A DNA stretch of 54,779 bases, from the NCBI GenBank assembly GCA_041158505.1, contig JBEBBG010000010.1, positions 1 through 54,779 of the forward strand, in the 5' to 3' direction. The notes beneath the pieces were generated by a model. That model did not search any database. It was given only the letters and a program-made list of their open reading frames with translations, and was not told the DNA's origin. Origin of the DNA: Candidatus Parcubacteria bacterium. Lineage in GTDB: Bacteria > Patescibacteriota > Minisyncoccia > Phycocordibacterales > JAACPR01. The position numbers and the translations under genes were made by a program. This document shows positions 17,624 to 43,093 of the stretch, one piece after another (positions within the stretch are counted from its first letter, which is position 1; the number at the start of each line of letters is the position of its first letter).

Positions 17624-17649
17624 GATGCACCTAGTATACACCACCAATG

Positions 17650-23272: not shown

Positions 23273-23279
23273 AAAACTT

Positions 23280-23355
23280 TGGAGCCACTTGTCAGGCTCG
23301 AACTGACGACCTGCTGTTTACAAAACAGCTGCTCTACCAACTGAGCTAAAGTGGC
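23280..23355 (-). tRNA. tRNA-Thr (anticodon TGT), CCA encoded
   Basis: The reverse complement gives acceptor GCCACTT/AAGTGGC. D-arm GCTC-AGTTGGTA-GAGC. Anticodon stem GCTGT/ACAGC with loop TTTGTAA. T-arm GTCAG-TTCGAGC-CTGAC. Ends in TCCA. Confidence 0.92.
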
Positions 23356-23368
23356 GTTGGTACTCTTC

Positions 23369-23743
23369 CTACAATCGAAGCTGCTTTTCGTACGCTCGAA
23401 CTGATTCGAGGTGCGCGGCTACGGTGTCTTTCATCTGACCGTTGCTTTTACGCTGGGCGGCATTTACAGCTTTAAGCGTCTGCTTGAGCGCCCACGCCCA
23501 GACTACCACAAGTGCGTGCAAAATAAATACTGGCACATTGTGAAGCTCGTGCATGGCCGCCGCGCGTGCCCTCCGGGCCGCGCGGCGGCCAACAGCAATG
23601 AAACGAACTACCCGTGCATCCGCGGCATCACGAGCGCGTGCAGGCACAATGTCTCGCCCTATTGTTCGCTCAAATAATCGAAGCGATACCATCGCGACAA
23701 GCGCTACACCGGACACAATACACGCTGCTGCTGCAAATGACAT
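23369..23743 (-). CDS. Hypothetical small membrane protein (Arg/Ala-rich)
   Basis: 124-aa ORF starting at ATG 23743 with two hydrophobic segments. It lies directly downstream of tsf. Confidence 0.55.
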   Translation of the reverse strand: MSFAAAACIVSGVALVAMVSLRLFERTIGRDIVPARARDAADARVVRFIAVGRRAARRARAAAMHELHNVPVFILHALVVVWAWALKQTLKAVNAAQRKSNGQMKDTVAAHLESVRAYEKQLRL

Positions 23744-23751
23744 GGTAGAAC

Positions 23752-24339
23752 TTATTCTACCACCGAGAAGCGGGCGATGCGACCGACTTCGATGCGCTCA
23801 CCAAGCTTCTGGGTTCCCTCCTGCAAGAGCACCTCAATTGTCTTTGACGGATCTTTGATGAACTCTTGGTTGAGGAGGACCTTCTCCTTGAAGTAGTTTG
23901 CAAGCTTTCCTTCGAGGATTTTTGCCTGCATCTCTGCTGGCTTATCTACAATCTCAGCCTGAAACACTTCAGTCGCCTTTTGCTTTGCTACTTCATCAAT
24001 TTCGGTTGCACGAACGTATGTTGGCGCAGTTGCCGCAACCTGCATCGCAATATCACGAGCAAGTGTCTGGAATGTTTCATTCTTTGACACAAAGTCAGTC
24101 TCACAAAGCAACTCTACCATTGCCCCTACCGCACCAGCACCGTGAATGTATGAAGCAACGGTACCAGCGCCGAGGTCTCGATCAGCTTTCTTTGAAGCCG
24201 CTTTTGATGAGAGCTTCTGGAGGATGATACGAGCTTTATCCATATCACCATCTGCTTCTTCGAGTGCTTGCTTGCACTGCATTACAGAAACACCGGTTGA
24301 TTCCCGAAGTTCCTTAATTTGCTCGGTAGTAACTGCCAT
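23752..24339 (-). CDS. tsf: Elongation factor Ts (short form)
   Basis: UBA-like N-terminus ITTEQIKELRESTGVSVMQCKQALEEADGDMDKA. Conserved rpsB-tsf order. Confidence 0.92.
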   Translation of the reverse strand: MAVTTEQIKELRESTGVSVMQCKQALEEADGDMDKARIILQKLSSKAASKKADRDLGAGTVASYIHGAGAVGAMVELLCETDFVSKNETFQTLARDIAMQVAATAPTYVRATEIDEVAKQKATEVFQAEIVDKPAEMQAKILEGKLANYFKEKVLLNQEFIKDPSKTIEVLLQEGTQKLGERIEVGRIARFSVVE

Positions 24340-24369
24340 AGTATGAACTAGTTATGTGAGTAATACAGC

Positions 24370-25095
24370 TTATGCTGTAGATTTTGTAGCCTTTCGTTTT
24401 GCTCCTGCTTGGTATGCCGCAACAATCTCTGCGAGTACGTATGAGATGCTGTGGACACCGTTGTCGTTTGCAAGAATCGGGTACGTCACCTTAGTGATAT
24501 CACAGTCTGAGCTTGAGAGTGAGACAATTGGAAGCTTTTCGTTGACTGCTTCTGCGGTTGCGTTATCTTCTTGCTTTACATCAACAATAAAGACAGCGCC
24601 AGGTCGTGTCTTCATGTTAACAATACCACCAAATCGCTCCTTGAGCTTTTCGATTTCTCGATCAATGAGGAGTCGCTCCTTCTTGGTGTACTTTGCAAGA
24701 AGTCCCTTCTCTTTTTCCATAAGCAACTTCTCGAGTCGCTGTACGCGCTTCTGAATTTGCTCAAAGTTGGTAAGCGTTCCTCCAATCCATCGTCCTGAAA
24801 CGTATGGCTGGTCGATTTTTACTGCAGCATCCTTGAGTACGCTCATTGCTTCTCGCTTACCAGAAACAAAAAGAATCTGCTTACCCTGAGCCGCAATCTC
24901 CTCAACAAACTGCTTTGCAGCATCGAGGAGTCCACTGGTCTTTTCTAAATCAAAAATCTCGATGCGGTTCTTTGCACCAAAGATGTAGTCTGAGGTTGAT
25001 GGGTGTCGGCGTGATTTTGTGTAGCCGAAGTGCGCTCCGACCTTAAACATCGCCTCTACCGCCTCTTTATTAATGGTTGTCTCTTTTGTCGTCAT
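24370..25095 (-). CDS. rpsB: 30S ribosomal protein S2
   Basis: MFKVGAHFGYTKSRRHP..., IFVDVKQEDNAT..., typical S2 length. Confidence 0.95.
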   Translation of the reverse strand: MTTKETTINKEAVEAMFKVGAHFGYTKSRRHPSTSDYIFGAKNRIEIFDLEKTSGLLDAAKQFVEEIAAQGKQILFVSGKREAMSVLKDAAVKIDQPYVSGRWIGGTLTNFEQIQKRVQRLEKLLMEKEKGLLAKYTKKERLLIDREIEKLKERFGGIVNMKTRPGAVFIVDVKQEDNATAEAVNEKLPIVSLSSSDCDITKVTYPILANDNGVHSISYVLAEIVAAYQAGAKRKATKSTA

Positions 25096-25104
25096 GTAGG
25101 CAGG

Positions 25105-25133
25105 AGTTTACCAGAAATGGCTATTTGTGGCAA
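25105..25133 (-). promoter_or_regulatory. rpsB promoter TTGCCA-17-(TGg)TAAACT, 9 nt before ATG (leaderless-type)
   Basis: On the minus strand the -35 TTGCCA lies at 25133-25128 and the -10 TAAACT at 25110-25105, preceded by TGG. Nine nt then lead to ATG 25095. Confidence 0.55.
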
Positions 25134-25160
25134 GACGCTTTACACGGCCTGCCCGTTTAA

Positions 25161-25188
25161 TTGACTTTTGTGTTAAATGTGTTATAAT
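25161..25188 (+). promoter_or_regulatory. Strong promoter TTGACT-16-(TGt)TATAAT for the 98-aa ORF
   Basis: TTGACT at 25161-25166 and an extended -10 TGTTATAAT ending at 25188. The predicted leader to ATG 25239 is about 44 nt. Confidence 0.55.
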
Positions 25189-25238
25189 ATAAAACAAAGG
25201 ATCGGTGAGGATAACATCCCCTCGCCCCTGACAAAACC

Positions 25239-25535
25239 ATGGCAAATCAAGAAACGGCCACCCCGCCGAAAGTGGGCGCTCTCGAGCATGCACGCATGCT
25301 CCTCGAGCGCGAAAAGGAGATTCGGCAAGCACACAAGCCTGCCGAAGATTGGGTTGCAGCAATCGCCCGACCCTACGGACACGAGTACTACGTACTCGCA
25401 TTCGTCAAACCAGAATGCACCCTTCAAGCCGGAGGTGCCATTCACAGCTTTGCTCAGCTGTACGACCAAGGCGTCCTGGGTGGAACCCTGATGGTTGAGC
25501 AGCCACTGGGCAAAATGTTTTGGCACTGGGCGTAA
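25239..25535 (+). CDS. Hypothetical 98-aa protein
   Basis: A stand-alone plus-strand ORF bracketed by a strong promoter and an intrinsic terminator. No recognisable motif. Confidence 0.6.
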   Translation: MANQETATPPKVGALEHARMLLEREKEIRQAHKPAEDWVAAIARPYGHEYYVLAFVKPECTLQAGGAIHSFAQLYDQGVLGGTLMVEQPLGKMFWHWA

Positions 25536-25556
25536 GCGCCCTCGTGTCGTACCAAC

Positions 25557-25600
25557 ACACCCCGTCCCTCAATCGAAAGAAAGAGGACGGGGTGTTTTAC
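25557..25600 (+). terminator. Rho-independent terminator
   Basis: Stem acaccccgtcc(c)tc / gaggacggggtgt followed by tttactttt. Confidence 0.7.
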
Positions 25601-25627
25601 TTTTAGAAATAAAAAGTGGCGCAGGCT

Positions 25628-26599
25628 TTACTCCTCAATCGTCAACTCGCCGCGCGCGTACGCAGCCACCTTATCGAGAATATCATCGAGATCACCGAGC
25701 ATGATACCTTCAATGTTGTGCCAGCTCTCTTTGATTCGGTGATCGGTGACGCGATTCTGTGGGAAGTTGTAGGTACGGATTTTCTCTGAACGATCGCCCG
25801 TTCCCACCTGCGCCTTTCGTTCTGCTGAGTACTTCTTTGCTTCCTCCTCTTCTTTGAGCGCCTCGAGTTTTGCAATGAGAATTGCCATCGCACGCTCTCG
25901 GTTTGCAAGCTGGCTTCGCTCAGCAGTCGAGCGCACGTCGATACCAGTTGCCTTATGGATAATACGCACAGCGGTTTCCACTTTGTTTACGTTTTGCCCT
26001 CCAGCTCCACCTGAACGTGAAAACTCCATCTCAAATTCATCTGGCCGAAGCTCAAGCTTTGTCTTTTTGCGCATTGGAAGCACTGCAACAGATGCCGTTG
26101 ATGTATGAATACGCCCTTGCTTTTCGGTTGCAGGAATACGCTGTACGCGGTGCACACCTGTCTCAAATCGAAGCACCTCATACACACCTTGGCCGCGAAT
26201 TTCAAACGCAGCTTCTTTGTATCCGCCAATCGCAGACGTTGATTCATAAAGGCGTTTTACACCCCACCCGCGTTTTTCTGCGTACTTTTGGTACATCTCG
26301 GCGAGCTGGTATGCAAAGATAGACGCCTCATCACCACCAGCACCAGCACGAACTTCGAGCACAATTTCGTTTGGAAACTCCTCTTCTTTTTTCTCCTGCT
26401 CGAGAATCTCGTTCATCTGCGTGACCAGCGCCTCCTGCTGCGCTTCAAGTGACGCACGCTCCTCTGCAGCAAGCTCCGCCATACCAGGATCTGCTTCGAC
26501 AGCAGCAAGCTCCGCCTTTTGCGCTTCAAGACGTTCGTACTCTGCAGCAAAAAACTGTGTCTTTTGATTCTCTTTGTAGGTGGTGAGGTCGATACTCAT
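25628..26599 (-). CDS. prfA: Peptide chain release factor 1
   Basis: GGQ motif (SGGAGGQNVNKVETAVRIIH) and the RF1-type PAT tripeptide (QRIPATEKQGRIHTS). Confidence 0.92.
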   Translation of the reverse strand: MSIDLTTYKENQKTQFFAAEYERLEAQKAELAAVEADPGMAELAAEERASLEAQQEALVTQMNEILEQEKKEEEFPNEIVLEVRAGAGGDEASIFAYQLAEMYQKYAEKRGWGVKRLYESTSAIGGYKEAAFEIRGQGVYEVLRFETGVHRVQRIPATEKQGRIHTSTASVAVLPMRKKTKLELRPDEFEMEFSRSGGAGGQNVNKVETAVRIIHKATGIDVRSTAERSQLANRERAMAILIAKLEALKEEEEAKKYSAERKAQVGTGDRSEKIRTYNFPQNRVTDHRIKESWHNIEGIMLGDLDDILDKVAAYARGELTIEE

Positions 26600-26620
26600 G
26601 ATGTGTATAGTAGAACAAAT

Positions 26621-26654
26621 AAAAGCACCGGCCGCAAAGCGGCCGGTGCTTTTA
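26621..26654. terminator. Bidirectional-type intrinsic terminator downstream of rpmE
   Basis: aaaagcaccggccgc-aaa-gcggccggtgctttt: a 12-bp GC stem flanked by an A-run and a T-run. Confidence 0.8.
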
Positions 26655-26659
26655 TTCCC

Positions 26660-26869
26660 CTACTTCTTTGCGGCTGCTCGGCGTGCCTTGAACTTCTCTA
26701 CACGTCCTGCGGTGTCCACAATCTTTTCAAGACCAGTGTAAAACGGGTGGCACTGGCTGCAGATTTCGACGTCGAGCTTTTCTCGAACTGAACCAACGGC
26801 AAAGGTTGCCCCGCATGCGCAGGTAGCTGTTGCCTTTTGGTGGTATGTCGGATGGATGTCCTTTTTCAT
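26660..26869 (-). CDS. rpmE: 50S ribosomal protein L31
   Basis: 69 aa from ATG 26869: [10 protein letters not shown]...CACG...[10 protein letters not shown]. TGcTATAGT sits 9 nt upstream. The tracked ORF's 35 extra N-terminal codons are not L31-like. Confidence 0.92.
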
Positions 26870-26924
26870 AGTGGGAAGACTATAGCACGGTCTTTCGAGA
26901 ATCACAAGAGTAGGAAAAACGGCT

Positions 26925-28358
26925 TTAATCAACATCAGCAAGGAAGTCGACCTGCTCCTGGAATCCCGCTGCATGGCTTAATACCGAAGTACCGTAGCTT
27001 TGACCTGGCGCTCCTGCGTAATTGTTGCCGGCGTAGTACTTTGCTGCGGCAGTATGTTCGGCGGTGTAGCCGCCAGCTGCTGCGCCCAAATCAGCAAGGT
27101 ACATGGCCGTTGCTGTGAAAGCGTGCTCTGGATTCCACGGATCTGGTGTTTTTACCCCAAGTGCTGCGGCGATACGGGCCTCATATGACTTCCAGGTAGT
27201 AGGAATAAACTGTGACGGTCCCATTGCCCCTCCCCAGCCACCAACAGAAGCAATTGGGCATGATAGTGGCGTTGTTTCTGGGTCGCGTCCAACCTTTGCA
27301 GTAATTTCTTTGAAAGTTGTCTGGTCATCACGCCATGAACATGGAGATGCAGCCCCCACGCACGATTTACCGTTCGCAAGGTAGTTTGCGTAATGCACTG
27401 GCCCCGGCATGATCGATGTGTACCGTTTTGTCTCAGGGTCACCCGCTCGATTACAGGTACCAACGTTTTTACCAAGGTCAGACTCCTGCTTTAGAATTGC
27501 AAGGATAAGTGCTGGACGAACACCTGTTGCCTTACCAGCAATCGTTGCGTACCGGACAGCATCACCAAACGAAATTCCCTCTACGTCACGAAGGCTGAAA
27601 AGTGCTGCACGAATCTGAGCTGCGCGCTGCTGCTTTTCTGCGATGTACTGTGAAAGTGTCGCTTCCGCTTGTTTTGAGTACTTGAGCAATTGATCTTTTT
27701 CATCTTCCTTTACCTCAACCTGCCGCTTCTGCGCTTCAATCTCTGCTTTCACATCTCGTTCAGCTGCCTGCTTTTTCTCGAGGGCAATTCGCTCCTCTTC
27801 TGTTAAGCCTCGAAGCTGACGGATCTCCTGCATGAGCTGCTCAAGTGAGTGCTGTAGCTGGTTATATGAATCGAGTACCACAAAAAAATCAGAAAGATTG
27901 TCGTGTGCAAGCAATGCCTCGGCGAGCGAAACATCATCGAGCTCATTTGTGCGTTTAATGAGATCCCCTAACGACCCGCGACTGCGTTCAAGCTTAGCGT
28001 TTAGCTCTTGCACGGTCTGATCTTTGAGATTGATATCCTTACCGATTTTTTTAATTGCAACATTGCGCTGCTCAATAGCAAGCTGGGCTTTTTTAATTTC
28101 TCCCGTAAGTACACGAAGTTCGCTCGCGATTGTTGCTGATTCAGCTTGCTGCGTACCAAGGGTCTGCTGCAGCGCTGCTTCTTCTTCTTTCAGACGTTTA
28201 TACTCTTCACACAGCTGTCGCTCATTATCGTCGCGCGGACTTGCACACACCTGCTCTTCAAGGCTTTGCGCGTAGAGCGTCTGCACTGCCCACAAGAAAA
28301 AGGTAACGATAACTGCAGCAAATACAATGTACCCGATGACGACTCGAAGCTTTGGCAT
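26925..28358 (-). CDS. Membrane-anchored coiled-coil protein with C-terminal lytic transglycosylase (SLT_2/MltB-like) domain
   Basis: N-terminal TM and a heptad-rich region of about 230 aa. The C-terminal domain has [12 protein letters not shown] (catalytic Glu) and [13 protein letters not shown]. Start was set at ATG 28358, with TATAAT 11 nt upstream. The tracked ORF starts at GTG 28367. Confidence 0.8.
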
Positions 28359-28413
28359 ACGTAGCACGTATTATACCCAACTCTGCGGGTAATGAAAAAC
28401 GGTGTGCTCATAG

Positions 28414-28450
28414 AAAAAAGCCGGGCACGTTTTACGTGCCCGGCTTTTTT
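28414..28450. terminator. Bidirectional-type intrinsic terminator downstream of rplY
   Basis: aaaaaagccgggcacg-tttta-cgtgcccggctttttt. Confidence 0.8.
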
Positions 28451-28467
28451 CAGTAGATACCCACTGC

Positions 28468-29100
28468 TTACGCTGCAGGCTCCTCTTCTTCCTTCTTCTT
28501 TCCAACAACTTCAATAGTGCTGAAGTCAGGAGCAACGACGTCTGTCTCTGTCTCCTCCTTGTGCGCCTGCACAAGAGCAATTACCTCGTCAGCATCGCTT
28601 ACGAGTGTTACACCAGCAGGCATAACAAGATCTCGAGCGTGAATTTGTGAATCAAAGTCAACGAGCGCATCGATTGAAACCTCAATTTCGTGTGGGAGAT
28701 CCTTTGGCATAGCCTCAACCTCAACCTCGTGTGTAACCTTTACGAGTACACCACCAAGGTCCTGCTCAGCAGCTGAAACACCAACGAATGTAAGTGGCAC
28801 AGTTACCTCTACCTTCTTTCCCTTTTCAACAACGTAGAAATCCACGTGCTGCACATCACCTCGAACTGGGTGAACAGTAATATCCTTTACAAGTGCATCG
28901 TGGTCTTCACCTGCACCAGTAAGTGTAATAATGGTTGATTCTCCAGCCTCACGGTACACCTTAATAAAATCTACTGCCTTAAACTTAATTGATGTTGCGG
29001 TCTGTTTTGGACCGTAAAAAACAGCAGGAACAAAGCCACTCTTTCGGAGCGCGTCTACGTTCTCGGCTGTGTCTCGGGTTTCAATGCTCAGCGTTGTCAT
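28468..29100 (-). CDS. rplY: 50S ribosomal protein L25/Ctc
   Basis: MTTLSIETRD...GFVPAVFYG...HVDF; two-domain Ctc form with an acidic tail. TGtTATACT sits 10 nt upstream of ATG 29100. Confidence 0.88.
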   Translation of the reverse strand: MTTLSIETRDTAENVDALRKSGFVPAVFYGPKQTATSIKFKAVDFIKVYREAGESTIITLTGAGEDHDALVKDITVHPVRGDVQHVDFYVVEKGKKVEVTVPLTFVGVSAAEQDLGGVLVKVTHEVEVEAMPKDLPHEIEVSIDALVDFDSQIHARDLVMPAGVTLVSDADEVIALVQAHKEETETDVVAPDFSTIEVVGKKKEEEEPAA

Positions 29101-29151
29101 AGTGAGGGCTAGTATACACGAATTCCTTGACAAGGCAACAGAACCCCCGCC

Positions 29152-30807
29152 CTACTTCCCCAGAATGTGGCTTTCCATGTATGCCAAGGTACCACCGACC
29201 TTTTTCCCTGGATTAAACATATTGTGTGGGTCAAAAATAGCTTTTACGCGCTCAAATAGGCCGTATACATCAGCTCCAAACATCTGTTTTACGTACGGTG
29301 TTCGCAAAATACCGTCATTATGCTCAGCCGTAATCGTGCCCTTATACTGAATAATCAGGTCGTACACGATATTTGCGACGGGTACAATTTTGTCTCGTTC
29401 AGACTGCTTGCTCAAATCCATGAGTGGAATAATGTGCAAATTTCCTTCACCTGCGTGCCCTGCAATATTTGCCTTAATGCCATGCTCTTTAAGGATTGCC
29501 ATAAGCTTTGGCAAGAACTCTGGAAGGACATCTGGTTTTACACAAAAATCTTCGATAAACGGCACCGTTTGCTTGTGTTTCACTTTTTGCCGGAGCAGGT
29601 TAAAGCTTTCACGACGCATAATCCAAAACTTCTCAGCTTCTTCCATATCATCAATAACACGATAGTGTAGCGCATTATCTTTGAGGGCCTCTACAACCTG
29701 CGCAACTTTTCGATCAGCCTCTTTTTTTGTGTCCTCAGCAATTTGCACGAGCACCACAAGCTTTGGCAAACCACCGAGCTTTAAGCTAATGATTGCTTCA
29801 GGCCAAAATTGCAGCGCAAATGACAAAAAGCTCTTACCTGCTTTCTTTGCAATTTCGGGCATAAACTTAATACCAAGCCAGAGCGTCGTATCATCAAATG
29901 TTTCCATGCTCTGTGCACCAATTGGCAGCAATTCATTTACTGTTTCTGGAAGCGCATCCCATGAGTTAAAGAAAAGCGTCACCAACCGTTCATGCTCTTT
30001 GGTTTCAACAAGCCGAACATCCGCCTCAGTCAGAATACCGAGCGTTCCCTGCGAACCTGTAAAAAGCTGCGTCAAATCAAACGTCCCCGCCTGCTTATCG
30101 TACACGTCCCAGAGAGCATACCCTGATGAATTCTTTACAACATCCGGCTTTGCGGCCTTGATGAGATCATAGTGTGCATCAATCAGCTCGAATGTTTTTC
30201 TGTAAATTTCACCTTCAAAGTCAGACTGCTGCATCTTTTGTGCAAGCTCATCCATGGTCAGTTTACGAAAACTGTACTCTTGCCCATTTGCGAGCACCAT
30301 CTTAAGACGCTCAACAAAATTTCGCATTTGCCCATAGCGAAGCGAGTTTTCACTACCACAGTTGTTCATAATCATGCCACCAAATGCAGCGAGACCTTTT
30401 GATGCCGGGTATACAGGCATTGAAACATGCTCAGGCAACGTGACACGTTCGAAGTCCCGATAAAAAACACCTGGCTCAACCGTTGCACGAAGTTTTGGCA
30501 AATCAACAGTCTCGCGATTAAAGTGAGCAGTGAAATCGAGAATAATTCCTTCTCCAACAGCTCCACCCGACATACAGGTTCCGGCTGCTCGCCCTGTAAT
30601 TGAAAGACCTGGAAACTCTTTTTGATTTGCGGCAACAAAACGCACGACCTGCTCAACATCTCGAACATCTTTTGGGCGCACAACTACCTTTGGACGCACC
30701 TTAAAAAGGCTCGCGTCTCTACTGTACGTTTCAAGCGTGGCGTCATCAATGAGCACCTCACCACGAACAACCTCACGCAACCGATCTTGTAGTTTACTTG
30801 ATGCCAT
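29152..30807 (-). CDS. FAD-binding oxidoreductase (GlcD/D-lactate dehydrogenase-like)
   Basis: A PCMH-type FAD-binding N-terminal domain plus an FAD-linked oxidase C-terminal domain (GTITAEHNDG). 551 aa. Confidence 0.82.
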   Translation of the reverse strand: MASSKLQDRLREVVRGEVLIDDATLETYSRDASLFKVRPKVVVRPKDVRDVEQVVRFVAANQKEFPGLSITGRAAGTCMSGGAVGEGIILDFTAHFNRETVDLPKLRATVEPGVFYRDFERVTLPEHVSMPVYPASKGLAAFGGMIMNNCGSENSLRYGQMRNFVERLKMVLANGQEYSFRKLTMDELAQKMQQSDFEGEIYRKTFELIDAHYDLIKAAKPDVVKNSSGYALWDVYDKQAGTFDLTQLFTGSQGTLGILTEADVRLVETKEHERLVTLFFNSWDALPETVNELLPIGAQSMETFDDTTLWLGIKFMPEIAKKAGKSFLSFALQFWPEAIISLKLGGLPKLVVLVQIAEDTKKEADRKVAQVVEALKDNALHYRVIDDMEEAEKFWIMRRESFNLLRQKVKHKQTVPFIEDFCVKPDVLPEFLPKLMAILKEHGIKANIAGHAGEGNLHIIPLMDLSKQSERDKIVPVANIVYDLIIQYKGTITAEHNDGILRTPYVKQMFGADVYGLFERVKAIFDPHNMFNPGKKVGGTLAYMESHILGK

Positions 30808-36856: not shown

Positions 36857-38641
36857 TCAGTTTGCCAACGTGATACGTGATAGGTGTAAACCTTCAGCGC
36901 TTACAGCTGTTGAAACATATCCAGGACAATTTATTTTTTCGCCATAGACATACGTCACATGAAATCGTTTTACTATTTCTTCTTTTTTTACACAGTCAGC
37001 AGCAATAAAATCCTCATACGGAACTGTTTTAACGGTAAGGGTAGATGTTTTTGTAAACAGAGGATCGTTGTTAGTCAGTGCACCAAGTAGTAGACCTTTC
37101 CAAGCAGGAGCAATGAAGCGTTCTCCAGATAGTGTTTTGAAAAGAGCGATATCATCTGCATGCAAGTGGCGATTTACCGGAGCTGCTGGTTCGGCAACGA
37201 GCTGCTCTGTTCCAGATGATGGCAGCTCGACACTAAATTGTCGCCATCGATCTTGCGTTGCGTATCCTGGCACAAGAACCACAGACACAATAAGCAGCAC
37301 ACCAACAAGCACAATTGATAGCTGGTGGTAATACGGCAACGGAAAGCGCTGCGTTAATCGATTCCACACATCCGCCACGGCAATACTTCCTAACGGTACA
37401 AGCAGGAGTGCGGTAATCGCTACGACTCTGTAGTAATCAATGATGAGAAATTTTGGAGACACCGAAAATATCGCCCACCCAACTAACCCGATAACAACAG
37501 GGGTACGCAGGTACCAGATTTTTTTGCCTTCAATAAAAAAGCTATAGAACACAAACGGCACGAGAGCTATAGGGATAACCTGCCATACGTAAAATGGCGG
37601 AGCCATGTGTACCGATTCCCCACGCGGTCGAACAATAAAATTTGAAACGTACTCAAACGCACGCACAAAAGGTACACCAGAAACAAGCAGCGTAACGGTA
37701 AAGAAGACCGCCCCAGCGGCAATCGCTCCCCCGCCATACATGAGAAGATGCTTTCTTTCCACTCGTGATTGATTGAAAAAGAGATAGGCGCAAAAGATTG
37801 GAACAACAAAAACAATCATGGGTGGATACAAAAGAATTGCGAGGACACCAACGAGTAGTGACAACCGATTGTACCGCTCAATCAAGAGCACGATTGTGCT
37901 TACAAGAAAAATGAATGACACATTCCACGGCAGCAAGTACCAGAGCATTGGTAAGTTTGCTCCATTTACAACAAACGGTACCGCAATCATGCCAAGAAGC
38001 ACGAATCCAAACGGTACTCGAAATGAAGCGAGCAGAATACCAATGAGCCCTACGGTTAGAGTGCCGATCAACACAGCAAGCAACACGTAGGCTGTCGGAA
38101 ACGCAATCCCGCTGCCGCCAAGAACACCAGTAACAAATGACTGAAATGCAACGAGCACATTTACATACGGCTTTCCCGTAAATGGATTCTCCGAAAAAGG
38201 CATTCCATCACGGAGTACATGTGTCGCAATCCCAAGCGTCACCCATTCATCTGAAAAAAGCGGATAGAGGTACGTATCATCTACAACGTACGATGTTGCT
38301 GTTGTGGTAGAAACTGGACCCGTGTAGGACACGTGCACCGACGCAAACTGTGTAGCAACAACCCCGACAACAAGAGCAACGGCGGCGGTAGGCACCCACA
38401 GATGTCGTGGCAGACGCACGAGCGAACGCCGTTTCCAAAGCACCCCGATAAGCACTGCGAGTATAACGATTGAGGCAATCTGCAATACGCCCACCGAGAG
38501 TAGACCGAGCGCCCGGAGCATGAGAGTACATGCCGCAATCCCCACAACCCATGCGCAGACGGCAACGGGGACATAGACACGAGGCCGAGTCGTAGTTACA
38601 GAGATAAGAAGTGCACTAAGTAGTATGAGTAGTAGTACCAT
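36857..38641 (-). CDS. Large polytopic membrane protein, GT-C-like glycosyltransferase candidate
   Basis: 594 aa with at least 12 hydrophobic helices, an acidic loop DDTYLYPLFSDEW, and a C-terminal soluble domain of about 130 aa. It is divergent from a polyprenyl-phosphate GT2. Confidence 0.6.
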   Translation of the reverse strand: MVLLLILLSALLISVTTTRPRVYVPVAVCAWVVGIAACTLMLRALGLLSVGVLQIASIVILAVLIGVLWKRRSLVRLPRHLWVPTAAVALVVGVVATQFASVHVSYTGPVSTTTATSYVVDDTYLYPLFSDEWVTLGIATHVLRDGMPFSENPFTGKPYVNVLVAFQSFVTGVLGGSGIAFPTAYVLLAVLIGTLTVGLIGILLASFRVPFGFVLLGMIAVPFVVNGANLPMLWYLLPWNVSFIFLVSTIVLLIERYNRLSLLVGVLAILLYPPMIVFVVPIFCAYLFFNQSRVERKHLLMYGGGAIAAGAVFFTVTLLVSGVPFVRAFEYVSNFIVRPRGESVHMAPPFYVWQVIPIALVPFVFYSFFIEGKKIWYLRTPVVIGLVGWAIFSVSPKFLIIDYYRVVAITALLLVPLGSIAVADVWNRLTQRFPLPYYHQLSIVLVGVLLIVSVVLVPGYATQDRWRQFSVELPSSGTEQLVAEPAAPVNRHLHADDIALFKTLSGERFIAPAWKGLLLGALTNNDPLFTKTSTLTVKTVPYEDFIAADCVKKEEIVKRFHVTYVYGEKINCPGYVSTAVSAEGLHLSRITLAN

Positions 38642-38681
38642 AAGCTTGCAGGACTCCCTTAAACATATAAGATTCTACCAT

Positions 38682-39833
38682 ATGGGACTGGCACCAAAGG
38701 TGAGCATCATACTTCCGTGCTTTAACGAGGAGGCGTCTATTACGACATACCTGCAAGCCATTCGTTCGGTCATAACCGCTGAGCGCTTAGATGCGGAGAT
38801 TATTGTCATCAATAATAATTCAACTGACGGGAGCACACACATACTGGCGCACGAAGAAATTCAAGATCCACGACTTCGAGTTATTCATGAAGGTCGCCAA
38901 GGCTACGGTTTTGCTTACATGCGTGGTTTAGAAGAGGCACGTGGAGAATTACTGCTCCTGGTTGATTTTGATGAAAGCTACGCAGCCACCGACATCCCTC
39001 TCCTCCTTGATGCGCTGATTGCAGGTGCTGACCTTGCGCTAGGAAACAGATTTAGTGGTGCCATGCACACACACGCAATGCCGCGTCTCCACCGATACAT
39101 CGGCAACCCACTGCTTTCATTCCTCATGCGTCGATTCTTTGGCACCAACGTACGTGACACCCACTGCGGTTTACGAGCAATTACACGCAGTGCATACAAG
39201 CAACTCAACCTTGTTACTGGCGGCATGGAGTTTGCAAGTGAGATGATTATCAAAGCGGTACGCGCGAAACTAACCATTCAAGAAGTTCCTGTCAGGTACC
39301 ATCCCCGCACAGGTACCTCAAAGTTGCGCTCATTCCGTGATGGATGGAGGCACCTCAGATTCATGTTGCTCTACTCGCCGCTCTACTTATTCCTTGTGCC
39401 AGGGGTTTGTGCCGTCGTACTTGGTGGCTTCTTAATGGTATTCCTGTACGCGGGAAAACTCTCTATCTTGGGAACACACTTTATCGTACACCCAATGTTT
39501 GTCGCATCGTTACTACTCATCGTAGGATACCAGTTGATTACCTTTGCCGGTTTTGCCAAAGCGTATGCTTTTACACACCTTGGAGAACGAACACCCTTTT
39601 TGGAACGATTTTTTGCACGCTACTCGCTTGAGCATGCAGCACTCCTTGGCGTAGCCGGCATTGCAATCGGGTTTCTGTTGTACTGCTTCATTCTCTACAA
39701 GTGGATTCTGTCTGACTTTGGTTCGCTTGATGAAATAAAAAATGCAGTGCTAGGTCTCACGCTCATGGTACTTGGCATTCAAACAATTTCGGCTGCCTTT
39801 ATGACAAGCATGCTTGGTATCGCAGAACGCTAA
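38682..39833 (+). CDS. Family-2 glycosyltransferase, polyprenyl-phosphate sugar synthase type (DPM1/GtrB/ArnC-like) with 4 C-terminal TM helices
   Basis: VSIILPCFNEE, VINNNSTDGS and LLVDFDESY (DxD), followed by four hydrophobic helices. Start was set at ATG 38682, with TATAAG/TAAGAT 8-10 nt upstream. Confidence 0.85.
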   Translation: MGLAPKVSIILPCFNEEASITTYLQAIRSVITAERLDAEIIVINNNSTDGSTHILAHEEIQDPRLRVIHEGRQGYGFAYMRGLEEARGELLLLVDFDESYAATDIPLLLDALIAGADLALGNRFSGAMHTHAMPRLHRYIGNPLLSFLMRRFFGTNVRDTHCGLRAITRSAYKQLNLVTGGMEFASEMIIKAVRAKLTIQEVPVRYHPRTGTSKLRSFRDGWRHLRFMLLYSPLYLFLVPGVCAVVLGGFLMVFLYAGKLSILGTHFIVHPMFVASLLLIVGYQLITFAGFAKAYAFTHLGERTPFLERFFARYSLEHAALLGVAGIAIGFLLYCFILYKWILSDFGSLDEIKNAVLGLTLMVLGIQTISAAFMTSMLGIAER

Positions 39834-39834
39834 C

Positions 39835-40632
39835 CTACCGTGTGCCCTCAAGGTAGTACGTGGTTTCAAGTCCCCACCCAAATGCCGGCATAAGCTCAGC
39901 AAAGGTATCCAGAAAAAAAGTTTTTTGCTCAGGCGTCCATGGCATCTCTTCGAGACTGCGAAGCAGTTGCTCATCACCACCAGTAAACTCTGGTCTGCGG
40001 TGCTCAAAAATAGTGGCCATTTTTTCGATTTGAGGAATCGATAAATTCAAAAAGATACCAATCGCTTTTGCCGTCTGCTGCGGTTTTGTTGCGATATCAT
40101 ACTGATCAAGTACTAGATATCGATCCTTTGGCAATCGTTCACAAGCACGCTGCATGTTTACAAGTACATCCCGCAATGCAATACAGTGTTGCTCAAATGA
40201 TAGGTGCGGAAACTTACGCAAGCGTGATGCAATATTCTCTATCGGTCGGCGCTTCATGATAATGCACGTTGCATCTGGCCACGCTTGTAACAGGTACGGC
40301 AGCGCAAGCACCGTATCATTATCTGGCGTTTTATCTACCCACATTCCACGAAACGGAATGCGCGCATCATAGAGCTCTTTAAACCATTGCGCGAGTGATT
40401 TTTTAAGTTTCTCTTGATCAATACGTTCCAACATAATTGACCCCTGTGCAATTTCTCGAGATCGACGAGCATACTTAATATCAACCATCCGAACAAATGA
40501 TCCAAAAATATCTGTAATGCAACCCTCAGCGTAGCCGGGTATTCCCGCACCATCCACGAGCGCGCGTGTCAGAATGCTCGTACCAGTACGAACTGAGCCT
40601 GTAATAAAGATAGGTTGATGCGTGTGTCCCAT
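39835..40632 (-). CDS. Sulfotransferase-family protein
   Basis: 5'-PSB loop ITGSVRTGTSILTRAL, WVDKTPDN, and a 3'-PB-like IIMKRRPIENIASRL. Start was set at ATG 40632, immediately after the upstream gene's stop at 40634-40636. Confidence 0.8.
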   Translation of the reverse strand: MGHTHQPIFITGSVRTGTSILTRALVDGAGIPGYAEGCITDIFGSFVRMVDIKYARRSREIAQGSIMLERIDQEKLKKSLAQWFKELYDARIPFRGMWVDKTPDNDTVLALPYLLQAWPDATCIIMKRRPIENIASRLRKFPHLSFEQHCIALRDVLVNMQRACERLPKDRYLVLDQYDIATKPQQTAKAIGIFLNLSIPQIEKMATIFEHRRPEFTGGDEQLLRSLEEMPWTPEQKTFFLDTFAELMPAFGWGLETTYYLEGTR

Positions 40633-40633
40633 A

Positions 40634-43093
40634 CTAGTCGTTTGCCTCGGCGTTTGCGGGCAGCTGCACATACTTCATAATACACTGCTCGAGTTTTGGA
40701 ATGACGACACTACTATCATACGCTTGCTGGTACATACGAGCTCGTTCACCCAGAGACGCTCGGGTTGGACCATTTTGAACTAACCGAACAACTGCTTCTT
40801 CAAGCATATCGATTGTCATCTCAGAGACAATGATACCAGCATCCTTGATTGCCTCTTTACTACCGCCTCCTCCCTCAAATACCACACACGGCTTTCCGAG
40901 AGACATTGCTTCAAGCACCGCAAGTGGAAATGGATCCTCTCGTGATGGCAGTACAAAAATATCAGCCGCAGCAAGGTATGGAAATGGATTCTCGCGCTCA
41001 TGTAGGAGCGAAAAGTATGGAGCGTACTGCTTAAAATCTGCCATGAAAGGCTCTTTGAAAGGACGACCTCCCATCCACACACATCGAACTGGCAGCCCTC
41101 GATTATGAAGGCGTTTCGCGAGCTGCATAAATAAATCAGCTCCTTTACGATAAATAAAAGAACCTAGTGCAAAAACGACAACCTCTCCGTTTGTGCTACC
41201 AATTTCTTGCTCTACAAGCTCAACGGGGACTTGTGTGCTTGCGGCAAGTACTGCTTGAGCATCAACAAATTCATGCGCAAAGAGCACGTGTTCCGGCGAA
41301 CACCCAAGTGAATGCACGAGAAGGTCATACACTGGCTGCGACACCGCAATGAATGTATCTGCCAAATGTTTAAATTCCGCAAGCTCTTTTCTCGAAAATA
41401 CAATTTGAAAAGCAATATCCAACTCGTGCACATGAAAAACAACAGGAATACCGAGTGTGCGTGCAGCTTTCGCAAAGGAGTGGCTAACGATTGAATTTAC
41501 ATAAACCACCTTCGGTTTAAGTTCGGTCAGAACGTGCGTTGCACGTGCCACAGGATCTCCAGATGGCATGAGTTGTTCTGGGTAGATAATTTCACCAAAT
41601 GTTTCTGTAAAAAGGTCATGCATCGAACCTCCTCCAAGTGATGCCATGGCAACGCTGCATCGAGTTTGCATGTGCTTGGCGATATCAAGCACAATACGTG
41701 GAGCTCCTGTTCTCGTCTCATCATGGGTAACAAAAAGGACGTCGGTTACAGGGTGCCGTTCTCGAAATGATTCCCAAAACGAGGCACTGTCTTCGATGGG
41801 GAGTGGCTCCATCTTTTGCATACGTCGAACGATATGCCGAGGGACCACCTCATTAAAAAAGTGTTGCTCATATGCGATGAGCGCATCATACAACCGTCGG
41901 ATAACCGTACCCCGTGGAAGGATGAGGTGTATCACCTTATCCCAGCTACGAATACACTTCCATACAAAGCTTCGCTCAATATTTGTAATGGTGACATGCA
42001 TGGCCTCAACCTCATTGGTAAGTGAACGAATCCGAGCCTCATGATGGGAGTCTCGCGCAGCAGCACGATCTGCCTCATGAGCAATGTGCCGATTGAGCGC
42101 AGTGATTTTTTCTTCTGCAGCGGCACGTTCAGCTTGTGCTGCCGAAATCTTTTCTTCAAGCGCTGAGCGCTCAGCAAGATGTGCGGCGTGCTGTTCGGCG
42201 AGCTGTACACTTGTTTCTTGGTAACGCCCTTGCCAATGCTTTGCATGCGCAAGCTGTTCCTTTGCAAAAACACTAATCGATGCAAGCGCATCAAGCTTGC
42301 TGTGCCACCAGTCCATATCAGTTGACCGAGCCTGCTTGAGTTCATCCAGCTCACGCTCAAGTCGCAGCGTACTACGTGCCATCTCAAGTAGGAGCTGATC
42401 ATCTTGCGCATGGTGGTGCGTAAGTCCAGGATCAAGTATCGTACTCAAACGATGTGCAGCGTCATCATAAGGGCGCAGTGCGGGATGCACTCCTTTAATA
42501 AGTTTATTTACAGCCGCTCGAGTATCCGTCAGCAGCTCATCGTACGCAATAAAAACCGTTGGAATCTCTTTTGTGTACATACGAATAATTCGATAAAAAT
42601 ACTCGTATGCTCGAACCGAAGCAGCAAGCGGTGTCCCGTTTCGTTTCTCGAGTGATGCAGCTACCGATGCAATGCTACGTACAGAAACCACAACACGAAC
42701 TTCTATACCGAGTGCCTGCAGCACATCAACGTATGCTGGTAAGAGTATTGATATTCTTGGATCCTTGATACCAAAGAGGTAGGTCTCTGCAAACGTACTC
42801 GTAACTATGTCGCTGATACGTTGCTTAAATGTAGTGGTGCGCTCATCATAGAGCCACTCTACAGGCAGCTCCCCATCACGACCATCGGGATCAAGCCCAA
42901 ATGATTCCAAGAATGCTCGATTCTCCCGGAGAATATCGACATGTTCGTTATACCCTTTTGGGTTGTCGTGCCAAGGGCTGATGAGTCGGTCACCAAAAGA
43001 AACACCAAGCGCTTCAAGCGTCTGTGCAAGGGCCGATGTACCGCTGCGGTGCATGCCAACAACGAGCACGCACGTCTGCTTTCCATATCGCAT
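40634..43093 (-). CDS. Tripartite fusion: sulfotransferase domain - long coiled coil - GT4 (group 1) glycosyltransferase
   Basis: The N-terminus has VVGMHRSGTSALAQTL, IKDPR and VRSIASVAASL. Residues aa ~236-375 are Ala/Glu/Arg/Leu heptad-rich (ERSALEEKISAAQAERAAAEEKITAL...). The C-terminus carries the GT4 EX7E region EDPFPLAVLEAMSLGKPCVV. Confidence 0.85.
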   Translation of the reverse strand: MRYGKQTCVLVVGMHRSGTSALAQTLEALGVSFGDRLISPWHDNPKGYNEHVDILRENRAFLESFGLDPDGRDGELPVEWLYDERTTTFKQRISDIVTSTFAETYLFGIKDPRISILLPAYVDVLQALGIEVRVVVSVRSIASVAASLEKRNGTPLAASVRAYEYFYRIIRMYTKEIPTVFIAYDELLTDTRAAVNKLIKGVHPALRPYDDAAHRLSTILDPGLTHHHAQDDQLLLEMARSTLRLERELDELKQARSTDMDWWHSKLDALASISVFAKEQLAHAKHWQGRYQETSVQLAEQHAAHLAERSALEEKISAAQAERAAAEEKITALNRHIAHEADRAAARDSHHEARIRSLTNEVEAMHVTITNIERSFVWKCIRSWDKVIHLILPRGTVIRRLYDALIAYEQHFFNEVVPRHIVRRMQKMEPLPIEDSASFWESFRERHPVTDVLFVTHDETRTGAPRIVLDIAKHMQTRCSVAMASLGGGSMHDLFTETFGEIIYPEQLMPSGDPVARATHVLTELKPKVVYVNSIVSHSFAKAARTLGIPVVFHVHELDIAFQIVFSRKELAEFKHLADTFIAVSQPVYDLLVHSLGCSPEHVLFAHEFVDAQAVLAASTQVPVELVEQEIGSTNGEVVVFALGSFIYRKGADLFMQLAKRLHNRGLPVRCVWMGGRPFKEPFMADFKQYAPYFSLLHERENPFPYLAAADIFVLPSREDPFPLAVLEAMSLGKPCVVFEGGGGSKEAIKDAGIIVSEMTIDMLEEAVVRLVQNGPTRASLGERARMYQQAYDSSVVIPKLEQCIMKYVQLPANAEAND

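Follow-up and report, generated by a model that had tools for sequence, protein, structure and literature searches.

Coiled-coil terminators are the best-understood bacterial means of measuring the length of surface polysaccharides. To our knowledge, the caps added by those studied are all methyl, methyl-phosphate or Kdo, and their hosts are all Gram-negative pathogens. In the window analyzed here, a 54,779-nucleotide stretch of a Candidatus Parcubacteria genome (assembly GCA_041158505.1, contig JBEBBG010000010.1), the first-pass annotation described an 819-residue protein with a sulfotransferase at one end, a GT4 glycosyltransferase at the other and a coiled coil between them, and likened it to WbdD and WbbB. 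The locus therefore raises the question if a glycan could be capped by sulfate at a length set by the coil. The surfaces of ultra-small symbiotic bacteria mediate host attachment and their chemistry is almost unknown; a protein of this kind would point to a defined anionic surface polymer.

Results

The fusion protein is conserved as a single three-part chain

The open reading frame of the fusion protein was confirmed at the annotated position, and its strand, which had not been given, was assigned as minus (Table 1). The order sulfotransferase, central segment and GT4 is real and conserved in homologs, and the domain limits proposed earlier (about residues 1-235, 236-375 and 430-800) were right to within about 10 residues. 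An AlphaFold2 model of the whole protein was obtained with a mean pLDDT of 84.6 and a continuous chain. A database survey of the three-part order, as had been suggested, revealed the same fusion in some 30 independent assemblies, both of metagenomes and of genomes. Full-length homologs of independent sampling and source (n=31, 28-51% identity) are collinear with the fusion protein and have its conserved junction motif in common, and eight further loci with near-full query coverage were obtained from species-representative genomes. No other full-length copy was found in 300 genomes of the same class, and the gene is thus sporadic.

Table 1. Location of the fusion gene, its parts and the neighboring genes in the window
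Feature	Position	Strand	Basis
Fusion gene, 819 aa, ATG start, uninterrupted	40634..43093	-	ORF reading
Sulfotransferase-fold head domain, aa 1-225	42419..43093	-	AlphaFold2 fold, profile search, motifs
Central helix, aa 231-373, putative coiled-coil spacer	41975..42403	-	DSSP on AlphaFold2 model
Junction, aa 374-435	41789..41974	-	Conserved coil-end motif and two helices
GT4 domain (GT-B, retaining-type), aa 436-809	40667..41788	-	Pfam, PDB sequence matches, Foldseek, invariant columns
Stand-alone Sulfotransfer_3 protein, 278 aa as longest ORF	39835..40671	-	PF13469, E 1.4e-15
GT2, 402 aa, 4-5 C-terminal membrane helices, GtrB/DPM1-like	38625..39833	+	PF00535, E 2.7e-27
Polytopic membrane protein, 594 aa	36857..38641	-	Hydrophobicity scan

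The N-terminal head is a predicted sulfotransferase fold

Because GT4 matches dominated when the complete model was used for fold comparison, the head was modeled separately (pLDDT 92.5) and compared with the PDB using Foldseek. All six matches at E<=1e-3 were sulfotransferases, among them TPST (8w5z/3ap2), the OLS ST (4gox), the CurM ST (4gbm) and Stf9 (2z6v), and P-loop kinases followed next; the TM-scores to TPST and Stf9 were only 0.46-0.57, with identities of 14-19%. PDB sequence searches with the whole protein or the full-length profile returned only GT4 matches and coiled-coil noise. A family profile trimmed to the N-domain was used instead, and its top matches were sulfotransferases only. 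The Pfam model PF13469 (Sulfotransfer_3) scored 16.5 bits on the whole fusion protein and 22 bits on the domain alone, which does not reach the cut-off of 27; it matched 16 of 18 head-family members at E<=0.01 (best 5.7e-16).

The sequence GMHRSGTS (aa 13-20) corresponds to the 5'-phosphosulfate-binding loop (5'-PSB) and R139-x7-S147 to the 3'-phosphate-binding (3'-PB) motif, and N44/G47/E50 as well as KDPR (aa 110-113) are present. In the profile search of the PDB these motifs aligned to GMPRSGTT, NKDPF and IRDGRAVVHS of TPST, which places K110 at the lysine of NKDPF. Judged by its spacing, E50 is presumably the counterpart of the catalytic Glu of TPST. All residues that are invariant throughout the family (G13, R16, S17, G18, S20, E50, K110, P112, R139 and S147, judged from 18-35 diverse members) are intact in the fusion protein. 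A P-loop kinase identity was ruled out, as the loop reads RSGTS and not Walker A GK[ST] and sulfotransferases outrank kinases. Taken together, the fold comparison, the profile matches and the invariant motifs for PAPS binding all point to a predicted sulfotransferase fold for the head. Its clade is large, comprising 8,733 cluster representatives at E<=1e-10 and 15,902 at E<=1e-3, and most of the long ones among its thousands of members are head–coil–GT fusions. In a sample of 44 long members, 31 carried GT2 domains and 17 carried C-terminal domains of the GT1/GT4 type.

A long predicted helix and a conserved junction connect the head to the GT4 domain

In the AlphaFold2 model, the central segment forms a single, continuous helix of 143 residues (pLDDT 50-75) that would span about 21 nm if fully extended. 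It contains no Pro and one Gly, and the equivalent segment of the 31 homologs, located between well-conserved end domains, is almost Pro-free and varies in length from 83 to 229 aa. Hydrophobic residues were biased to the a/d heptad positions (z = 4.1 against shuffles; median 3.9 across the 31 homologs, 27 of which exceeded 2), but the test is not clean and is indicative only, because the globular N-domain used as control also scored z = 3.2. The heptad pattern of the fusion protein itself is Ala-rich and only moderate, and profile matches of the family to coiled-coil proteins were weak. The segment is a putative coiled-coil spacer. A spacer of the single alpha-helix (ER/K) type was considered unlikely, since the composition is Ala/Glu/Leu/Arg and not >70% charged.

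At the end of the helix the junction carries the coil-end motif I-E-R-S-x-x-W-K, in which S375 is invariant and R374 and W378 are nearly so. The junction contains two helices, one amphipathic (aa 375-392, hydrophobic moment 0.59, mean hydrophobicity 0.24) and one at aa 397-425. The former, a candidate membrane-proximal element, may bind to the membrane. Unrelated architectures (P0038, P0045, P0050, P0055 and L031) also have the coil-end motif, as RS..W[KR] or S..W[KR], at the end of a Pro-free segment, and so do many of the 44 long head-family members. P0055 is a methyltransferase–TPR–coil–GT4 protein that aligns with 24% identity over 56% of the fusion-protein query, and L031 has a GT2 head on the same junction and GT4, with a linker of only about 30 helical residues. 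The heads are thus swapped on a shared module of coil end and GT4, P0055 carrying a methyltransferase and L031 a GT2.

The C-terminal domain belongs to the GT4 family

The C-terminal domain adopts a GT-B fold in the AlphaFold2 model. Pfam assigned Glyco_transf_4 to aa 463-612 (PF13439, E 2e-11, 44.6 bits) and Glycos_transf_1 and Glyco_trans_1_4 to aa 629-786 (PF00534, E 4e-21, 75.6 bits, and PF13692, E 5e-22, 79.1 bits, respectively), all above the curated cut-offs. With Foldseek, the best PDB structure matches were HepE, PglA, BshA, MshA and PimB' (E ~1e-17, TM to target 0.7-0.8). Residues invariant in the 31 homologs are H457, T462-G463-A464-P465, R649-K650-G651, representing the R/K-G phosphate-binding motif, and E719/D720...E728, which forms an EX7E-like acidic motif. 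As the fusion contains a single GT module, a polymerase role would need either a homopolymer of a single linkage or outside help.

Neighboring genes encode a second sulfotransferase and putative glycan enzymes

In the Patescibacteria loci examined, a stand-alone sulfotransferase is encoded directly downstream of the fusion gene, with adjacent orthologs in L002, L004, L006, L023, L027 and L029. In the window it probably starts at M14 (base 40632). Pairwise comparison with the fused head gave no detectable similarity. The actual capper could be this second, adjoining sulfotransferase; alternatively, both enzymes could act internally. The GT2 encoded next to it has hydrophobic segments at aa 255-393 and is probably a polyprenyl-phosphate sugar synthase; its orthologs in L002 and L006, one of them 48% identical, carry PF26629 (GT2_TM_C). 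The 594-aa protein gave no Pfam match; its 12-14 or so hydrophobic segments are followed by about 130 soluble residues, and its orthologs adjoin the GT2 in L002 (42% identity) and L006 (28%). Topology and position alone suggest a GT-C-type enzyme, perhaps the transferase that partners the GT2 on the outer face. A tie of the fusion to the type IV pilus genes nearby was also considered and was dropped, as neither L004 nor L006 retains the linkage.

Relatives are located in ABC-transporter glycan clusters

In genome collections, Wzm was encoded within 8 kb of all eight full-length relatives and Wzt within 8 kb of seven of them, usually directly upstream; for the closest relative, L002, Wzm/Wzt were not found within 10 kb. 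An APS kinase was present nearby at 22 of 54 head-domain loci: it adjoins the gene in L006/L027 and occurs together with CysD in L025 and in L016/L030. These observations place the fusion family in ABC-transporter (Wzm/Wzt) glycan clusters and, in relatives, connect the head domain with PAPS supply. One head-domain relative was located in a flagellar cluster without a transporter.

The Wzt proteins differ in length between these loci. In the Paceibacterota, Saccharibacteria, 'archaeon' MAG and Woesearchaeota relatives they comprise 239-271 aa, whereas 23 of 27 Wzt ORFs at the remaining loci (a set without the full-length-fusion loci of CPR, archaeon and Acidobacteriota and without the Woesearchaeota loci) have 403-504 aa, which leaves space for a carbohydrate-binding module. 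Proteobacterial head relatives occupy the position of WbdD or WbbB beside a long Wzt, in some cases with a Wzt_C carbohydrate-binding module. Thus, L010 and L022 show the order Wzm, Wzt with Wzt_C, sulfotransferase with C-terminal coil, and polymerase GTs. Cellvibrio mixtus and C. fibrivorans encode sulfotransferase–coil–GT2–GT1 proteins, located behind Wzt and an APS kinase in the former and behind Wzm and a Wzt_C-bearing Wzt in the latter. Versions carried by cultured Cellvibrio, Pseudomonas and Burkholderia strains are directly testable.

Discussion

A proposed sulfate-capping ruler

We give about even chances to the reading that the fusion protein is a bifunctional assembly enzyme of a Wzm/Wzt surface-glycan pathway, with a layout like that of WbbB or O7 ORF6 and a sulfotransferase head, acting as ruler and terminator. 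What we infer for this protein and its neighbor are an oligomeric coil, membrane anchoring, a terminal sulfate that stops the chain, the ruler role and the part played by the second sulfotransferase. In the proposed mechanism, the coiled coil would oligomerise the protein, and the conserved amphipathic junction would bring the C-terminal GT4 to the membrane's cytoplasmic face, where it would lengthen a polyprenol-linked glycan. The N-terminal PAPS-type sulfotransferase, held about 21 nm away at the opposite tip of the rod, would reach and sulfate the non-reducing end only when the chain is long enough. The terminal sulfate would stop extension, so that the length of the rod sets the length of the chain, and Wzm/Wzt would export the finished glycan. 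The neighboring GT2 and polytopic protein may then decorate it outside the membrane.

The export pair itself, for which a search elsewhere in the genome had been suggested, was found once, on a different contig from the fusion gene (C13:193-1736). Its Wzt has 253 aa and an ABC_tran domain only. As this short protein is without a carbohydrate-binding module, cap recognition, one of two hallmarks by which capped-glycan systems are known, is absent here. A short Wzt of this kind is typical of cap-independent export, which has been described for the Klebsiella O1/O2a type (PMC11231755). The fusion might accordingly be a glycan-modifying scaffold and not a ruler: the GT4 would add one sugar or help to build the repeat, both sulfotransferases would sulfate internal residues, the coil would oligomerise or dock partners, and length would be controlled via export coupling, as in cap-free Wzm/Wzt systems. 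We regard this as the less probable account, albeit a serious one. It fits with the short Wzt, which is shared by all CPR-type relatives, with the presence of two different sulfotransferases at the locus and the single GT module of the fusion, with the occurrence of a head relative in a flagellar cluster, and with the short helical connection between GT2 and GT4 in L031. However, a long, length-variable spacer with a modifier at its far end is kept across phyla, Proteobacteria pair the spacer with a long or CBM-bearing Wzt in exactly the positions of WbdD and WbbB, and 83-229 residues would be a costly spacer for mere dimerisation.

The donor of the proposed sulfate cap

To analyze the supply of PAPS, the source assembly (723 kb, 19 contigs, scored 100% complete) was searched with Pfam models and by tblastn, using three APS kinases, CysD, CysN and the CTP_transf_like partner as queries. 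Neither APS kinase nor ATP sulfurylase (PF01747) nor CysD was found in it, and the sole tblastn matches at E <0.05 were those of CysN to other GTPase-type (EF-Tu-like) genes. The lack of these genes raises the question where the sulfate donor comes from. As the cell would be unable to make PAPS, the head might not be a PAPS-dependent sulfotransferase in this genome and instead be idle, serve as a regulatory binder of PAP(S) or another nucleotide, or use another donor. The sub-threshold Pfam sulfotransferase scores of the fusion protein and the P-loop kinases as next-best structural matches point in the same direction. Against this stand the intact family-wide invariant residues, the sulfotransferase-type loop RSGTS in place of a Walker A motif and the second intact sulfotransferase kept at the locus; moreover, accessory genes may be missing, since the assembly is split into 19 contigs, one of which ends 192 bases from the Wzm gene. 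We consider a head of this kind improbable. Uptake of PAPS by an episymbiont from its host cell is conceivable. Least credible is that the 819-aa ORF arose by an assembly or frameshift error joining two genes, an idea to which we give practically no chance and which is effectively refuted by conservation, because about 30 independent assemblies carry the same fusion, with the same junction motif in 31 collinear homologs and near-full coverage at the eight species-representative loci, and because the AlphaFold2 model is unbroken across it.

A broader but improbable extension would be that sulfate capping is a widespread third terminator chemistry beside methyl/phosphate and Kdo. A stripped-down form without a cap-reading Wzt would then exist in Patescibacteria, Saccharibacteria and DPANN-type archaea, and the lineage described here, without PAPS synthesis of its own, would build a length-defined, sulfate-tipped glycan with a host-derived donor.

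Comparison with known systems

A coiled coil with a terminating enzyme at its distal end is described as the marker of the terminator strategy (PMC11231755). By analogy, the fusion protein would be a sulfotransferase variant of this known class, which is defined by architecture and not by common descent; neither WbdD nor WbbB was among the PDB sequence matches to the fusion protein or the family profile at E<=1. The likeness to WbdD and WbbB drawn in the first-pass annotation is partly supported by the architecture, by the Wzm/Wzt and APS kinase linkage of relatives, by the long Wzt of proteobacterial relatives and by the methyltransferase head that P0055 has on the module of coil end and GT4, and is weakened by the short Wzt without a carbohydrate-binding module and by the lack of PAPS genes in this genome. 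That a sulfotransferase version was unfamiliar agrees with the literature searched, in which none was found, although one may already be listed in the census published by Mann, Kimber and Whitfield in 2019, the abstract of which reportedly predicts new terminator chemistries. With a sulfotransferase as head, the class would gain a new cap chemistry, and sulfate-tipped glycans would be predicted in many bacteria.

Among the closest systems is WbbB, which unites a terminator, a long coiled coil and C-terminal GTs in one chain within a Wzm/Wzt pathway (PMC11231755). In the protein of Klebsiella pneumoniae O12 and Raoultella terrigena, a beta-Kdo GT99 is followed by a coiled coil and two polymerising GTs, the same order of parts as in the fusion, and the Cellvibrio head relatives likewise have two GT modules after the coil. 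WbbB differs in its head, a GT99 Kdo transferase in place of a sulfotransferase fold, in having two GTs instead of one GT4, and in its system, as the partner Wzt here is without a carbohydrate-binding module. The Patescibacteria-type cell is presumably also without LPS, unlike the hosts of WbbB.

In WbdD (E. coli O9a, K. pneumoniae O3 and O5), a kinase-methyltransferase with a coiled-coil ruler that recruits WbdA, the modifier is likewise held off the membrane and polymerase end. The same layout, a head with C-terminal coil and no GT, was found directly after Wzt in three relatives: the Burkholderia protein of L070, and P0038 and P0057, which are preceded by Wzm and a Wzt_C-bearing Wzt and followed by separate GTs. 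WbdD is unlike the fusion in that it transfers methyl or methyl-phosphate and not a predicted sulfate, in that its GT is recruited and not fused, and in its CBM-bearing Wzt, which is missing here.

ORF6 of Klebsiella pneumoniae O7 combines a methyltransferase-kinase, a coiled coil and two GT2 modules in one polypeptide (PMC11231755). It shares with the fusion the single chain of a small-group-transferring terminator, coil and GTs, and P0055, with its methyltransferase head, has the coil-end motif and GT4 in common with the fusion; the differences are the chemistry of the head and GT2 in place of GT4. For the head alone, TPST and mycobacterial Stf9 are the best structural and profile matches, with 5'-PSB loop, KDP lysine and R-x7-S aligned; they differ by the low TM-score and identity and by the very large separate family to which the head belongs.

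Methyltransfer, which the head of P0055 would catalyze, is a known terminator chemistry. WsaE of the S-layer glycan of Geobacillus stearothermophilus combines a methyltransferase with rhamnosyltransferases, in a pathway with ABC-transporter export and Wzy_C-type transfer to protein. It provides the single-membrane precedent for the capping of a glycan followed by ABC-transporter export and ligation by an enzyme of the Wzy_C family. Its methyl cap differs from the sulfate proposed here, and its other steps resemble the set of the source genome, which encodes, in addition to Wzm/Wzt, an initiating transferase of the Bac_transf type and a ligase of the Wzy_C type (a Wzy_C+TPR protein).

Integrity and domain architecture of the fusion protein

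The 819-aa fusion protein is encoded by a single ATG-started ORF, whose extent agrees with the first-pass annotation and whose strand, left out there, was assigned here. The corresponding database protein (P0002, 806 aa) starts 13 residues downstream; the start at 43093 is favoured because the strand TCVLVLG before the GMHRSGTS loop is conserved in homologs. The collinear architecture is common to all 31 full-length homologs, which come from independent samples (28-51% identity, 759-882 aa), and in species-representative genomes another eight loci cover nearly the whole query. This conservation shows the fusion to be genuine, so that an artefact joining two genes, as the first-pass annotation had feared, can be set aside with near certainty. 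The genes on the assembly (723 kb, 19 contigs) are those of a Patescibacteria-type cell, among them type IV pilus genes, a split transketolase and GatB; where homologs are named, they belong to Paceibacterota, Pacebacteria and Patescibacteria records.

As the head scored below threshold against the Pfam sulfotransferase family (16.5-22 bits, threshold 27), its assignment was tested independently. A structure search with the separately modelled head (aa 1-235, pLDDT 92.5) gave six PDB matches at E<=1e-3, all of them sulfotransferases (tick and human TPST, the OLS and CurM sulfotransferase domains, Stf9), followed by P-loop kinases. Sulfotransferases also ranked top in a PDB search with a profile built from 18 trimmed head domains, and in the profile alignment GMHRSGTS corresponded to GMPRSGTT of TPST, KDPR to NKDPF and R139-x7-S147 to IRDGRAVVHS. 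Residues G13, R16, S17, G18, S20, E50, K110, P112, R139 and S147 are invariant among heads that are just 25-42% identical, and PF13469 was matched by 16 of the 18 members. Fold, profile, motifs and Pfam matches concur on the proposed N-terminal sulfotransferase domain. The C-terminal domain is unambiguously a GT4, as had been suggested: both GT4 Pfam domains (N- and C-terminal) score above threshold, aa 436-809 of the full-length AlphaFold2 model (mean pLDDT 84.6) adopt a GT-B fold, the top PDB matches of the model are HepE, PglA, BshA, MshA and PimB' (E about 1e-17), and the motifs R649-K650-G651 and E719/D720...E728 are invariant in the 31 homologs.

The spacer (aa 231-373) was modelled by AlphaFold2 as one unbroken helix of 143 residues (pLDDT 50-75; no Pro, one Gly) whose length as an extended coiled coil would be about 21 nm. 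Equivalent spacers in the 31 homologs, in which both end domains align well, are nearly Pro-free and comprise 83 to 229 residues. Compared with shuffled sequences, heptad a/d hydrophobicity was raised in the fusion protein (z = 4.1, with Ala-rich heptads) and in the family (median 3.9; above 2 in 27/31), the control being imperfect, with z = 3.2 for the globular head and -0.5 for the GT4. The central coiled coil proposed previously is thus well supported as a long helix; an oligomeric coiled coil is likely.

The spacer is closed by a conserved I-E-R-S-x-x-W-K motif with an invariant S375, and an amphipathic helix comes next. The pattern (R/K)-S-x-x-W-(K/R), with a hydrophobic or amphipathic stretch after it, also ends the coil segment in the proteins P0038, P0045, P0050 and P0055 and in locus L031 of a relative, the heads and GT modules being quite different. 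It may be the membrane- or partner-docking element of this class. Motif and GT4 also occur behind a methyltransferase head (P0055) and a GT2 head (L031), so that heads are evidently exchanged on a common chassis.

Genomic context of the fusion gene and its relatives

Positions of the features discussed (window coordinates unless a contig or locus is named)
Feature	Position	Strand	Remarks
Fusion gene	40634-43093	minus	
Coil-end motif of fusion protein	41950-41974		aa 374-381
Stand-alone Sulfotransfer_3 protein	directly downstream of fusion gene		no detectable similarity to fused head
GtrB-like GT2	downstream of fusion gene, after stand-alone sulfotransferase		C-terminal membrane helices
Polytopic protein	36857-38641	minus	594 aa; about 12-14 membrane segments, soluble C-terminal tail, no Pfam match
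Phenylalanyl-tRNA synthetase beta chain	17650-19950	minus	766 aa; NlpC/P60 peptidase insert (aa 356-477, E 3.5e-15) between B3/4 and B5 domains
C39-like peptidase gene	17054-17647		next after the synthetase gene
Second glycan locus, same genome	contig C11, about 23100-30450 (L014:5101-12452)		Wzy_C protein with TPR repeats, asparagine-synthase-like protein, three GT4s
HxGH nucleotidyltransferase (Pfam CTP_transf_like)	L006:5027-5419		130 aa; adjoins minimal APS kinase, Patescibacteria locus
CTP_transf_like/APS-kinase fusion	L016:6326-7285		Acidobacteriota locus; 53% identical to L006 copy
Protein with same sulfotransferase-like head	L018:10001-13444		1147 aa; Acidocella MAG, flagellar cluster, between flagellin genes

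The stand-alone sulfotransferase adjoins the fusion gene also in L002, L004, L006, L023, L027 and L029, and the GT2 and polytopic pair was found again in L002, L006, L023, L024 and L027. The polytopic protein, beside a GtrB-like GT2 in L002 and L006 too, may represent a new GT-C-like family. The search for a Wzm/Wzt-like export pair elsewhere in the genome, which the first-pass annotation had advised, revealed a single pair, 192 bases short of the end of contig C13. A Bac_transf initiating transferase and a Wzy_C+TPR ligase-like protein with three GT4s are also present; the Wzy_C protein on C11 (ligase/O-oligosaccharyltransferase-like) may attach the exported glycan.

Full-length relatives in genome collections (a Paceibacterota, four Saccharibacteria, a Patescibacteria MAG, an archaeon-labelled MAG and an Acidobacteriota MAG) have Wzm in 8/8 and Wzt in 7/8 cases within 8 kb, usually directly upstream, and the gene context in relatives is the strongest evidence for the proposed chain-terminator role. 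The order in L006 and L027 is methyltransferase, Wzm, Wzt, APS kinase, small CTP_transf_like protein, fusion, sulfotransferase, GT4, GT2 and polytopic protein. On the map of the Acidobacteriota locus, CysN, CysD, a CTP_transf_like/APS-kinase fusion, Wzt and Wzm precede the fusion and a sulfotransferase+GT2 protein, with CysN, CysD, Wzt and Wzm on the opposite strand. The CTP_transf_like protein, invariably adjacent to the sulfotransferase fusion, may be a small enzyme that activates sulfate or is related to PAPS.

BLAST probes applied to all 54 loci with the head domain detected Wzm in 28, the nucleotide-binding domain of Wzt in 35, and an APS kinase in 22. Wzt comprises 239-271 aa in the Paceibacterota, Saccharibacteria, 'archaeon' and Woesearchaeota loci, and 403-504 aa in 23 of 27 ORFs from loci other than the full-length-fusion and Woesearchaeota ones. 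Archaeal-labelled MAGs (archaeon, Woesearchaeota, Nanoarchaeota) carry a full-length fusion (L026), head and coil (L035), GT2–junction–GT4 with Wzm/Wzt and the GT2 and polytopic pair (L031), and a further relative (L032), which suggests either that ultra-small bacteria and archaea have exchanged the cluster or that these MAGs are mis-binned.

Proposed function

The likeliest reading, at about even odds, is that the fusion protein works like WbbB with a sulfate cap. The GT4 would be located at the membrane, with the sulfotransferase held about 21 nm from this end, and the glycan would leave the cell via Wzm/Wzt, after which the GT2 and polytopic pair may decorate it on the outer side of the membrane. 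The proposed analogy to WbdD/WbbB-type terminators gains from Wzm and Wzt near the relatives and loses from the system itself, since its own Wzt lacks the carbohydrate-binding module that is a hallmark of the class and no PAPS source is evident. APS kinase, ATP sulfurylase and CysD were all undetectable in the 19 contigs (scored 100% complete), the choices being an assembly gap or a scavenged sulfate donor. Two intact sulfotransferase domains are present in the locus despite this. The main rival, in which the fusion protein serves non-terminal sulfation and scaffolding, is less likely than a WbbB-like sulfate terminator and ranks ahead of both a silent or repurposed head, which is improbable, and an artefact.

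Comparison with known chain terminators

The head domain is very common, with 15,902 cluster representatives at E<=1e-3, of which 8,733 reach E<=1e-10, and it sits almost invariably at the N-terminus of proteins about 200-2200 aa long. In a sample of 44 long members, GT2 domains occur in 31 and GT1/GT4-type C-terminal domains in 17. At least 24 have a Pro-free, charge-rich segment of 80-420 residues after the head, mostly directly, which often ends in S-x-x-W-[KR]. The flagellar position of the L018 protein hints at flagellin glycan modification rather than polysaccharide capping.

Full-text literature searches gave no sulfotransferase-type terminator, in line with the architecture having been unfamiliar in the first-pass annotation, and no work on sulfotransferases in the surface biology of Patescibacteria. 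The 2019 census by Mann, Kimber and Whitfield, cited by Kelly et al., reportedly describes in its abstract predicted new chemistries and systems diverging from the prototypes, and may therefore already list a sulfotransferase head. Sulfate capping would in principle not surprise specialists; the chemistry appears widespread and uncharacterised, tractable cultured relatives exist, and the episymbiont setting is odd.

The capping strategy, whose mark is a coiled-coil protein with the terminating enzyme placed distally, is widespread among ABC-transporter pathways, with modules fused (WbbB, O7 ORF6) or separate (WbdD/WbdA, O4) and sulfate unmentioned (Kelly et al. 2024, PMC11231755). Both layouts were found with the sulfotransferase head. 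Two MAG loci (L010 and L022) show exactly that of WbdD, with Wzm, Wzt with Pfam Wzt_C, a head with C-terminal coil and separate polymerising GTs accompanied by rml genes. The layout of WbbB is seen in the head–coil–GT2–GT1 proteins of Cellvibrio mixtus J3-8, where the gene comes after Wzt and APS kinase, and C. fibrivorans BE190, where it comes after Wzm and Wzt with a Wzt_C-like extension.
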